In this document: in pieces, positions 34,992-62,674 of the stretch
Position numbering within the stretch: the stretch's first letter is position 1
Layout: the number at the start of each line of letters is the position of its first letter
Source: Candidatus Aenigmatarchaeota archaeon
Lineage (GTDB): Archaea > Aenigmatarchaeota > Aenigmatarchaeia > GW2011-AR5
Direction of reading: 5' to 3'
Length of the DNA: 64,000 nucleotides
Assembly (NCBI GenBank): GCA_016187335.1
Contig: JACPJW010000001.1
Span: 704,001 to 768,000 of the forward strand
Program-made: the position numbers and the translations under genes
Notes under the pieces: model-generated
What the model was told of the DNA's origin: nothing
Seen by the model: the letters and a program-made list of their open reading frames with translations, nothing else
The model's database searches: none

Positions 34992-35041
34992 TTTCCGTTT
35001 TGATCAAACTTTTTTGAAAAGTTTGACTGAGCCACTTCGGC
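34992..35041 (-). repeat. Exact duplicate of the first 16 nt of tRNA-Met (35026-35041) followed by a family-A hairpin (34992-35025)
   Basis: ACTGAGCCACTTCGGC occurs at 34976-34991 and 35026-35041. Confidence 0.9.
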
Positions 35042-35100
35042 ACAAAGAGCAGAACCTGACGGTTCTCTCTCTTGACTCTCATTCCCTTATTATTTCTTGG

Positions 35101-41406: not shown

Positions 41407-41430
41407 TATATTCCATATTTAATGACTAAC

Positions 41431-41551
41431 GCCACCATAGCTCAATCCGAACTTTTCCGAAAAGTTCGATCAAAAGGGAAAGTTTGGGGGAAATTGGCAG
41501 AGCATCTGTTTTGTAAACAGAAGGTTGGGGGTTCAAGTCCCTCTGGTGGCT
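41431..41551 (+). tRNA. tRNA-Thr(UGU) with a D-loop intron at 15/16 (41446-41493)
   Basis: 73-nt mature cloverleaf, acceptor GCCACCA/UGGUGGC, U73, anticodon arm UCUGU-UUUGUAA-ACAGA; the intron is mostly a family-A hairpin. Confidence 0.92.
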
Positions 41552-47609: not shown

Positions 47610-48032
47610 TCAGACGTCCAAAATCACTCTGGCAATCCATTTCTTTTCTTTTTTCAATTCAAAGTTGTGGTAAGTCACGGCCTTAACGTCCACAAGCAGC
47701 TCATGCTTTTCCATGTCTAATTTCTCTCCGGATACCTTTGCCGTTAATACAAGGTTCTTTTCGTCTATTTTTACGGAAAATCTGCTCAGCAGAAGCTGTT
47801 TGGCGTCCTTCAGGAAAACTATTTCCTGCAAAAAATTGAACAGCAGCGATTCCAAAGAATCGCTCCTCAGCTTTATTGTTTTCGTCACCTTCGGCTTCAC
47901 TTTCTTCAGATCCCTGACCATCGTGTTCGTGACAGCCAGGCCCGCTGACTCAAAAAGCTCTTTCAATGTCCCGCCCGAGGCTTCAAAGGCCACGTCAGCT
48001 ATGGCAACGTCCTTGAAGAATCTGTAGGGCAT
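47610..48032 (-). CDS. Archease (RtcB activator)
   Basis: YRFFKDVAIADVAFEASG, LFESAG, VKAVTYHNF, C-terminal ILDV. Confidence 0.92.
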   Translation of the reverse strand: MPYRFFKDVAIADVAFEASGGTLKELFESAGLAVTNTMVRDLKKVKPKVTKTIKLRSDSLESLLFNFLQEIVFLKDAKQLLLSRFSVKIDEKNLVLTAKVSGEKLDMEKHELLVDVKAVTYHNFELKKEKKWIARVILDV

Positions 48033-59457: not shown

Positions 59458-59737
59458 AAATAACAGTAGAATTGAGCTTTATTTAAACATATTGAAAACT
59501 TTTGGTTTTCGCCTAATAGAGAGCTGGATCTCGGTTGGACTTAACAAACATTATGAGAACTTTCAAGAATTTAGGTCGAGAGCCTGCAAGGCTCGAGCCG
59601 TATAAGCCCTGTTAAGTGAGGCGAGGACGAAGTCCGAGAGTGCAAAGCCCCAAGGATTTACAAAGTAAATCCGCAGAGTTATTTTAGTGGTGCAAATCAA
59701 TAAAGGTTTATATATCGGTGTATTCTTCTACTATATA

Positions 59738-61063
59738 ATGAAAAAAGACTGCATTTTGAGTGGATTAATAGGTTTATGTGTAGGGGATGCTTTAGGTGTA
59801 CCTGTAGAATTTAAGAGCAGAGATGAATTAAGTAAAAATCCTGTTGAAAGTATGATTGGAAATGGAACATACAATCAACTTGCCGGAACGTGGTCTGATG
59901 ACAGTTCTTTAACATTTTGTTTAGCAGAAAGTCTATGTACAGGATATGATTTAAATGATTTAAGTCTTAAATTTTGTAGATGGTTAAACGAAGGTTATTG
60001 GACACCATATGGAAAGGTATTTGATGTTGGGATAAGTACCAAAAAAGCCATTCAAAATTTATGTAATGGTAAAGAACCTACAAGATCAGGAGGAAATAAG
60101 GAACAAGATAATGGTAATGGCTCCTTGATGAGGATACTCCCTATTGCATTTTTTACAAATGATATGTATGTTAGCACTATGGTAAAGGTGGTTGAAGAAG
60201 TATCTTCTTTGACACATAGACATAATAGATCAATAATTGCTTGCTCTGCCTATGTTTTTATTGCTAATAATATAATAAGAGGAAAAAACAAAAAAGAAGC
60301 TTTTAGATTATTAAGATTAAATCTTCCGTTTTTATTTAGTAAAGAAAAGGGTGAAGAATATAACAATGAGTTAAAGCATTTCAAAAGAATATTAGATAAG
60401 GATTTCTTTAATTTACCTGCAGAAAAAATTAATTCTTCAGGTTACGTTATTGACACTTTAGAAGCTGCTTTTTGGTGTTTTATGAATAATGATAATTATA
60501 AAGACACTGTTCTTTCTGCAGTAAATTTAGGGGAAGATACAGATACTGTTGCTGCAATAGCTGGGGGATTAGCAGGGATATATTATGGAATAAATAACAT
60601 CCCAAAAGAATGGATTGACGCAATAGCAAGAAAGAAAGAAATTATCTATTTAGCAAAAAAACTTGATGAATCTCTTAAAAAAAGATGGTCGTATATTGGT
60701 TTCGAACTATTGGATAGAATAAATATTAAAAAACCATCTAAACATATTATCAAACAAAACTATGAAAAATATATCAAGGATTGTGAAAATGAAGTAAGAG
60801 GTGTTTTGCAGTTTTCAGCTTATTCTTTTGGATATCCAGAATCAGATCATGCGGTTGTCGATGCTGGGGAAGTAAATAGACAGGTTTGGAGATATTATCA
60901 TGCTAACAAAAAATTCGATATCTTTTCATTAGGACATTTATGCACTGCAGTTTTTTTTATTTCAAGAGCAAGGCATCACCAAGGGAGTTATCCTAAGAAA
61001 CCAGAAGAAGGAGAAGTTGCTATTTCTAAAGAGATTGTTAGAAGAATACATCAATTACTATAA
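59738..61063 (+). CDS. ADP-ribosylglycohydrolase (ARH/DraG family) with a C-terminal extension
   Basis: VGDALG, WSDDS, GNGSLMR, THRH, GEDTDTVAAIAG; about 120 extra C-terminal residues. Confidence 0.92.
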   Translation: MKKDCILSGLIGLCVGDALGVPVEFKSRDELSKNPVESMIGNGTYNQLAGTWSDDSSLTFCLAESLCTGYDLNDLSLKFCRWLNEGYWTPYGKVFDVGISTKKAIQNLCNGKEPTRSGGNKEQDNGNGSLMRILPIAFFTNDMYVSTMVKVVEEVSSLTHRHNRSIIACSAYVFIANNIIRGKNKKEAFRLLRLNLPFLFSKEKGEEYNNELKHFKRILDKDFFNLPAEKINSSGYVIDTLEAAFWCFMNNDNYKDTVLSAVNLGEDTDTVAAIAGGLAGIYYGINNIPKEWIDAIARKKEIIYLAKKLDESLKKRWSYIGFELLDRINIKKPSKHIIKQNYEKYIKDCENEVRGVLQFSAYSFGYPESDHAVVDAGEVNRQVWRYYHANKKFDIFSLGHLCTAVFFISRARHHQGSYPKKPEEGEVAISKEIVRRIHQLL

Positions 61064-61175: not shown

Positions 61176-62674
61176 CTACCCTTTCACATTCCCTATCGGC
61201 ACGAGCTTGCAGACCTTCTTTGAAAGCCCTGCCGTATGAACCACTTCTATCACTTCGTCAATGTCCTTGTAAGCGCCGCCTGCTTCCTCGGCTAAGCCTG
61301 CAAACGAAACAGTTTTTACTAAAATCCCTTTCTTTTCCATGTCCCTTTGCAGTTTATCGCCGCGCCACATCTGCCTTGCGCGCGTCCTGCTCATTGTCCT
61401 GCCTGAGCCGTGGCACGTGGAGCAGAACGTTTCCGCAGCCTTATCGCCGCCGACAAGCAGGTACGAGCCCGTTTCCATTGAGCCTCCGATGATCACCGGC
61501 GAGCCGTCGTTCCTGTACATTTCCGGTATTTCCTCGCGGCCTGCGGGATAGCTGCCTGTCGCACCCTTCCTATGGACTAAAACCTCTTTTGTCTGGCCGT
61601 CTACTTTGTGCTTCTCCAGGGATGCCCGGTTGTGAGCGACGTCGAATACCATGTGCATGTCCATGTCCTCGGCGCTGCGCTTGAATACGGAAGAAAACAC
61701 CTCGCGGACGCGGTGCAAAATAACTTGCCTGTTCGCGAAGGACATGTTTACCGCGCATTTCATAGCAGTGAAATAGTCCTGTCCCTCTGGCGAGTTGAAA
61801 GGCGCGCACGCAAGCTCGCGGTCAAGAATCTTTATTTTATATTTCCTTTCCATGACGTTGAGAAATGACTGAAGGTAATCCGTAGCAACCTGGTGCCCGA
61901 AGCCGCGCGAGCCGCAATGGAACATGATTACAATTTGCCCTGGGAACAAGCCCCATTTCTTCGCAAGCTCTTTGTTGTGTATATTTTCTTCCTTTACCCA
62001 CTGGACTTCAAGATAATGATTTCCCGAGCCGAGCGTGCCTATCTGGTTGAAGCCGCGCTCTACTGACCTGCTGCTTATTTTTCTTGAATCCGCGCCTTCC
62101 ATCCTGCCGTTCAGTTCGCAGCGCTTCAGGTCTTCTTTCCATCCGTAATCATGCTCAACGCACCATTCCGCGCCTTCCTCAACGACCTTGCGGAACTCGT
62201 CCTTCGTTAATTTAACAAATCCTGTCGAGCCTACGCCTGCAGGCACCCTTTTGAAAAGCATGTCTACAAGCTCTTTCAGCTTGGGCTTCACGTCGTTTAT
62301 AGTAAGGTTTGTAGTAACCAGTCTCATCCCGCAGTTCACGTCGAATCCGATTCCGCCAGGAGATATAACTCCTTCGTTAGCATCAAAAGCAGCAACTCCG
62401 CCGATTGGGAATCCGTAGCCCGATTTGCCTCTCTTCAGATACCTGAAAAGATATGACCGTCAGGCATACAGAACGCGTGATTGATAATTCCGGGAAGCGT
62501 TGCGACGTTCGCTATCTGGTCGAAAACCATCAGGTCCATATCGTCAATGAGCTTTTTCGACGCGTACATCCGCGCAGGGACCTTCATACCCTGCTTGAAT
62601 GAAGTAGGTATCTCCCAGATTACGTCGCTGATTTTTTTCAGTTCCGGTTTTTTCAAATTTGTCCCCCAAACCAT
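61176..62674 (-). CDS. rtcB: RNA-splicing ligase RtcB; exons 62453-62674 and 61176-62423, 489 aa after splicing
   Basis: Exon 1 ends VATLPG...MPDGH; exon 2 starts SGYGFPIGGVAAFD...FDVNCG and has GSGNH, HCGSR, HN, HRKGA, STCHGSGR; GGAGGTGA Shine-Dalgarno. Confidence 0.92.
62424..62452 (-). other. 29-nt BHB-like intron in rtcB
   Basis: ATCTTTTCAGGTATCTGAAGAGAGGCAAA; frameshifts and contains an in-frame TGA; 9-bp inner stem with 3-nt bulges; removal restores MPDGH-SGYGFP. Confidence 0.85.

Follow-up and report, generated by a model that had tools for sequence, protein, structure and literature searches.

A putative BHB-type mini-intron in the archaeal RNA ligase gene rtcB and its possible spread with a neighbouring LAGLIDADG nuclease

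Introduction

The only spliced archaeal mRNAs named in a 2023 review are those of cbf5 and HVO_1309 (PMC10485636). The BHB intron in cbf5 of Desulfurococcales and Sulfolobales measures 16-44 bp, has one inferred gain followed by losses, and has been shown to be spliced (Yokobori 2009, PMC2738675). The HVO_1309 mRNA of Haloferax volcanii is cut by the tRNA-splicing endonuclease and spliced, a single case from one lineage for which the review mentions no nuclease partner (PMC10485636). How do BHB introns without a nuclease spread? The question is open for cbf5. Two known forms of mobility are pertinent. The mobile BHB rRNA introns of Crenarchaeota combine BHB splicing with endonuclease-driven mobility, their nuclease being encoded internally (PMC2738675). 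In the collaborative, or trans, homing described in phages, a self-splicing group I intron devoid of an endonuclease lies beside a free-standing homing endonuclease, which was pre-adapted to the site, within a conserved stretch of the gene, that the intron occupies (PMC2988022).

Here we describe the rtcB locus of a tiny groundwater archaeon, Candidatus Aenigmatarchaeota archaeon, whose sole rtcB found is broken by an intron of the kind that RtcB seals. The window is a stretch of 64,000 nucleotides (GCA_016187335.1, contig JACPJW010000001.1, positions 704,001 to 768,000), and positions below refer to it unless another contig is named. Like the cbf5 intron, the rtcB introns (15-36 nt) are short and of BHB type, and they interrupt an RNA-processing enzyme at an active-site motif; both are too short to encode a nuclease and both must be spliced. 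Unlike the cbf5 intron, those of rtcB belong to another lineage, occupy at least four sites, are patchily distributed and lie beside a free-standing nuclease, and their host is the splicing ligase. The likeness to HVO_1309 is a predicted one. In contrast to the phage case, the present element would pair a 29-nt protein-spliced BHB intron with a LAGLIDADG protein of putative cleavage activity, in a cellular archaeal gene; and whereas the crenarchaeal nucleases are internal to introns of rRNA, here about 220 bp separate the nuclease gene from the downstream intron, which sits in an mRNA.

To the two named spliced mRNAs, the family described here adds about 100 distinct introns from three DPANN phyla, in the splicing ligase itself. 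Our literature search, which covered few subscription journals, retrieved no report of an rtcB intron. The gene goes unmentioned in a 2026 preprint that analyses 208 complete Nanobdellota genomes and takes the number of split genes as the ceiling for frameshifts due to assembly (10.64898/2026.05.13.725050). The rtcB introns appear to be a real, conserved and apparently unpublished family of mRNA introns.

Results

An insert in rtcB folds as a relaxed BHB motif

Coordinates are collected in Table 1. A preliminary description of the locus had reported that a frameshifting, stop-containing insert divides rtcB, and the letters bear this out. In silico excision yields an RtcB of 489 aa, read in frame from the ATG at 62674, with the active-site motifs PDGH, DVNCG, GNH, HCG, AHN and CHG complete (the metal ligands of RtcB are reviewed in PMC10630183). 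The alignment of exon 1 to P. horikoshii RtcB stops at His67 and that of exon 2 starts at Gly69; as the exons flank these two residues of the solved enzyme, exactly one residue is due between them, and excision provides it. Reading frame alone permits several 29-nt excisions, among which the BHB register singles out 62424-62452.

Folding reproduces the 9-bp stem, GUAU loop, GGUC/GGCA helix and both bulges that had been described earlier (62410-62465, z = -3.6, with none of 200 shuffles equally good). The 5' bulge has 3 nt and is closed by the 9-bp helix h'. At the 3' site an internal loop, followed by an exon helix of 6 bp, takes the place of the 3-nt 3' bulge of the strict canonical motif (hBHBh'), so that the motif counts as relaxed BHB, not canonical; likewise the central helix has three pairs and a G.A where the canonical BHB has 4 bp. 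The asserted likeness to D-loop tRNA introns is also apparent, as the tRNA-Thr intron shares both the G.A end pair and the AA^U bulge, and the archease gene is indeed present in the window.

Table 1. Features of the rtcB locus and of the splicing machinery within the window
Feature	Position	Strand	Remark
tRNA-Thr(UGU) with relaxed D-loop intron, comparison substrate	41429..41551 (start approximate)	+	
Archease gene, RtcB cofactor	47613..48002	-	PF01951 match
rtcB exon 2, 415 codons, PF01139 E 2.7e-158	61176..62423	-	active-site motifs all present, intein-free
Entire relaxed BHB including exon-exon helix (62465-62460 with 62423-62418)	62418..62465	-	
Predicted BHB-type mRNA intron, 29 nt, frameshifting	62424..62452	-	in-frame TGA at 62437-62435
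Intron-side central-helix strand (GGCA) and 3' bulge AA; 3 pairs and G.A end pair	62424..62429	-	
Intron stem h', 9 bp (62451-62443 with 62438-62430), 4-nt loop	62430..62451	-	
Exon-side central-helix strand (GGUC, 62458-62455) and bases 1-2 of 5' bulge, forming the Gly-His codons	62453..62458	-	
rtcB exon 1, 74 codons, the last being His of the PDGH motif	62453..62674	-	
Free-standing two-motif LAGLIDADG endonuclease gene, 279 aa	62674..63513	-	stop overlaps rtcB start (TAATG)

From its sequence, the unspliced mRNA would terminate inside the intron and leave a 79-aa fragment. Separate translation of the 387-aa downstream ORF was considered and rejected; this frame begins at the NCG motif and is without residues 75-102. 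A sigma-70 promoter scan, a model unsuited to archaea, gave results at chance level. The 3' end of rtcB faces a converging, AT-rich ADP-ribosylglycohydrolase gene (59687-61063, plus strand), whose product has a C-terminal extension of about 150 aa with no Pfam match.

Splicing machinery and tRNAs of the genome

The genome (1.01 Mb, two contigs, 90.8% complete) holds one archease gene, one EndA gene and one rtcB; a check for a second rtcB, advised in the preliminary description, found none, and no RNA ligase of Pab1020 type was found in the same assembly. The EndA gene (L101:1474-2082, equal to G000 C2:410508-411113, minus strand) encodes a C-terminal insert at the loop position of Nanoarchaeum (N. 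equitans), and this loop class has been linked to disrupted tRNA genes in DPANN (PMC5829648). Nearly all members of the order have an EndA with this loop. In 30/30 members of the order examined, an Ala aligns to Lys156 of M. jannaschii, the catalytic residue there, and the lysine-rich loop insert is nearly invariant; the catalytic lysine may come from elsewhere.

Introns are abundant in the tRNA genes of this genome. The earlier statement that every tRNA seen needs splicing holds within the window, where tRNAs were inspected by eye, but does not extend to the genome: tRNA-Ala(CGC) at G000 C1:27719-27790 and tRNA-Pro(UGG) at G000 C2:580252-580324 are intron-less, so at least two tRNAs can do without splicing. 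At about 34992-35043 of the window (minus strand), a second copy of the 16-nt 5' end of the intron-bearing tRNA-Met gene lies shortly before the gene, and a hairpin repeat separates the two. The EF-2 gene of this genome is an uninterrupted open frame of 762 aa, and a de novo scan of the genome for further BHB-split ORFs gave 1381 candidates, mostly noise.

A family of inserts at the PDGH motif

When GTDB genomes were scanned by pattern, 70 loci proved to carry an insert at the rtcB PDGH motif, most of them titled Woese-, Aenigm- or Micrarchaeota or Nanoarchaeia. Later searches brought the set to 100 distinct inserts, 15-36 nt long, which occupy four sites in a span of 10 nt; it was gathered by pattern from related loci, and its counts overstate independence. 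In nucleotides after the His codon, the sites are +0 (n = 67, the present intron included), +2 (n = 11), +7 (n = 14) and +9 (n = 8). Each of the first 69 inserts has a single best BHB register, and cutting there restores H-[SWF]-GYG in 69/69. Site +2 offers the clearest indication that BHB cleavage defines the boundaries: the BHB cut there falls within a codon and restores Trp, whereas joining at the codon boundary would produce Lys or, in three loci, a TAG stop.

A survey of DPANN rtcB genes for compensatory stem changes had been recommended, and across the inserts the stems do stay paired. Among the 67 site +0 introns, 326 of 335 cells of the h' stem are paired, against 240 after shuffling (maximum 256); the stem columns each show several pair types, and the intron sequences diverge. 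The Gly codon of the exon covaries with the facing intron strand (T-A 48, C-G 12, T-G 5); it is GGY in 65/65 intron loci versus 17/26 intron-less ones. Three pairs and a G.A make up the central helix in 59/67 site +0 introns, while four pairs are found at +2 and in most introns at +7. One site +7 intron (L025:1455-1525) could form a perfect canonical BHB one base off the frame-restoring register. Sites +0 and +9 resemble each other in exon context (GGY-CAY and GGY-TAT) and at their 3' ends.

The inserts occupy all three frame classes, and 95 of the 100 contain an in-frame stop. At site +0 the stop is present in 64 of 67 introns, where shuffling predicts 33, and TAA, TAG and TGA occur there in 14 position/codon combinations; every frame-preserving insert of the first set has one (37/37). 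Such selection for stops suggests that ribosomes meet unspliced mRNA and that read-through products are harmful, which is compatible with a regulatory intron as well as with a passenger.

The intron associates with a LAGLIDADG nuclease

The preliminary description of the rtcB intron leaves out the LAGLIDADG gene that overlaps the rtcB start. Both acidic catalytic positions of its protein are intact, and they are kept in the homologues that cover them; a sequence search gave no relative with a solved structure. Counted over related, non-independent loci, a nuclease homologue immediately precedes rtcB in 31/70 intron loci but in none of the 39 intron-less loci with enough flank. Seen from the nuclease side, in metagenomes, the intron is present in 24/27 scorable loci, and two of the other three carry an intron at the second active-site motif. 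Eight of the 301 genomes sampled from the phylum have the nuclease (E 1e-30 or better), and all eight have an rtcB intron. Decayed nuclease copies exist as remnants and stop-bearing frames. A divergent nuclease subgroup (L172, L177-L179) precedes rtcB genes in which neither motif shows an intron. In another arrangement, seen with the site +7 intron at L170, L173-L175, L181, L189 and L190, the nuclease gene is upstream and oppositely oriented.

Exon 1 diverges more than the distal gene in 6/6 sister pairs that differ in intron presence, most clearly in L003/L008 (0.41 versus 0.12). A global nearest-neighbour test, however, found intron loci not to be extra-clustered by exon 1 (64/72 versus 62/72), and co-conversion is therefore only partly shown. 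On a tree built from the distal region of RtcB, 14-17 changes are required to explain intron presence, and sister genes can disagree on whether, or where, an intron is present. The rtcB closest to the present one is about 80% identical, and the closest loci carry Aenigmatarchaeota labels; in the tree the gene clusters with those of other families and not with those of its own family, a placement that points to transfer of the locus as a unit. Records labelled 'uncultured Methanosarcinales' (L033, L055, L062, L063 and others) have an RtcB nested among Woesearchaeota sequences; they are probably mislabelled bins, or possibly cases of transfer. In viral contigs the intron pattern matched 14 times, never in rtcB, and no viral carrier was found.

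Discussion

What keeps an intron in the gene of the ligase that would splice it? The rtcB pre-mRNA would fold as a relaxed BHB, EndA would cut after the second base of each bulge, and pre-existing RtcB with archease would join the exons into the 489-aa ligase. That EndA cuts and RtcB ligates this transcript is, on the sequence evidence, very likely. We propose that the mini-intron and the nuclease form a two-part selfish element that spreads by collaborative homing. The nuclease would cut intron-less rtcB alleles at the conserved motif, the intron would split the recognition site and so protect its own allele, and repair would copy nuclease gene and intron jointly. Later the nuclease would decay, with the intron persisting because only a precise loss restores rtcB. 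If splicing occurs, it is probable that the nuclease cuts intron-less alleles and that intron and nuclease spread jointly, as their distribution suggests, and the two-part element as a whole is the account we lean towards. The pair can be placed in a homing class by association only. Against the account speak the relaxed loop at the 3' splice site, the Ala of EndA at the Lys156 position, the relatedness of the loci, the outcome of the nearest-neighbour test, and the divergent nuclease subgroup ahead of rtcB genes that show no intron. Were it correct, this account would give BHB introns too small for a nuclease of their own a DNA-level route of spread, and it offers a testable answer to how nuclease-less introns of this type move. 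On the wider proposition we are evenly divided: that protein-spliced mini-introns serve as immunity patches for a free-standing LAGLIDADG nuclease and spread among the DPANN phyla by collaborative homing, their target being the gene of the ligase that splices them, with RtcB then self-dependent and the intron stops gating translation.

The preliminary description held that RtcB is needed to mature its own mRNA and that this feedback switch, tying ligase supply to splicing capacity, accounts for the intron. Self-dependence follows if splicing occurs, given the single rtcB, the archease and the lack of a Pab1020-type ligase among the genes found; it would be a by-product of the selfish element, with ligase inherited at cell division priming its own synthesis. 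Could the switch nevertheless be what maintains the intron, the nuclease being incidental? Several points lend themselves to adaptive control: the genome has a single rtcB, the strong selection for intron stops implies that unspliced mRNA is translated, several independent sites strike the same gene, 39 of the 70 intron loci persist with no nuclease, and a regulatory role has been put forward for the cbf5 intron (PMC2738675). Yet the phylum sample has about 120 intron-less rtcB matches against about 19 with an insert (the pattern misses some sites), mixed within genera, although the EndA loop is nearly universal in the order. Further, sister genes differ in both presence and site, and the nuclease associates nearly exclusively with intron alleles. 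The loop would also be a positive rather than a homeostatic one, in which less ligase leads to still less, and so would fail to fit supply to need. Since the feedback is positive and most relatives manage without the intron, we rate the switch low as a main cause, and unlikely; the nuclease would explain the intron distribution better. Also unlikely, if a little less so, is that tRNA-type introns reached rtcB at the RNA level, by reverse splicing, and are neutral there, while the nuclease homes alone and drags the intron along. The resemblance between sites +0 and +9, the abundance of tRNA introns in the genome and the nuclease loci that lack an intron would all suit such transposition. It is opposed by the absence of a second copy of the intron from this genome at up to 6 mismatches, by the fall of four separate sites within one recognition-site length, and by the nuclease lineages that accompany different introns and almost never stand beside an uninterrupted allele.

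Two further readings dispense with splicing. A hairpin plus an in-frame stop resembles bypass signals, and the insert has both, as might be expected if ribosomes hopped or shifted frame across it. Such bypass is very improbable: matched take-off and landing codons are missing, lengths fall in all three frame classes, the site +2 boundary interrupts a codon, where a ribosome hopping by whole codons would run into TAG in three loci, and the features that are conserved are exactly those of BHB geometry. That the gene is a pseudogene, or its insert an artefact of assembly, is scarcely credible, even though a stop and a frameshift are both there. No difference at the intron site is seen among contigs of four runs: those of two runs (X1 and X3), perhaps the source of the assembly, span it, and two from a 2017 study cover one and the other half of the insert but do not bridge it. 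An assembly error, which the earlier account had named as a way to overturn it, is unlikely in view of these unchanged contigs and of the interruption of the same motif, with compensated stems, in about 100 distinct loci. Against a pseudogene stand the intact active-site motifs, the identity of about 80% to the nearest relative and the lack of a second rtcB.

The intron also has consequences for annotation. Gene callers truncate RtcB in intron-bearing genomes, and the breaks may be tallied as assembly frameshifts or pseudogenes.

RtcB is prey to other elements too. Its inteins, which are seen in relatives of the present gene, sit at N|C of the DxNCG motif. Like the rtcB introns they are selfish elements aimed at active-site codons, but they splice at the protein level. 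Relatives have a second site of mini-introns in the same motif: a cluster of BHB-like inserts of 22-33 nt in GxDxNC, beside the intein site, which is absent from this genome. It comprises L034, L036, L071, L085, L093, L097, L148, L149 and L152, where the insert lies about 90 nt after the first intron, as well as L151 and L156. Three more short LAGLIDADG frames of 222-302 aa, seemingly free-standing, occur elsewhere in the genome (G000 C2:209021-209188, 212548-213108 and 241283-241411) and may accompany other introns.
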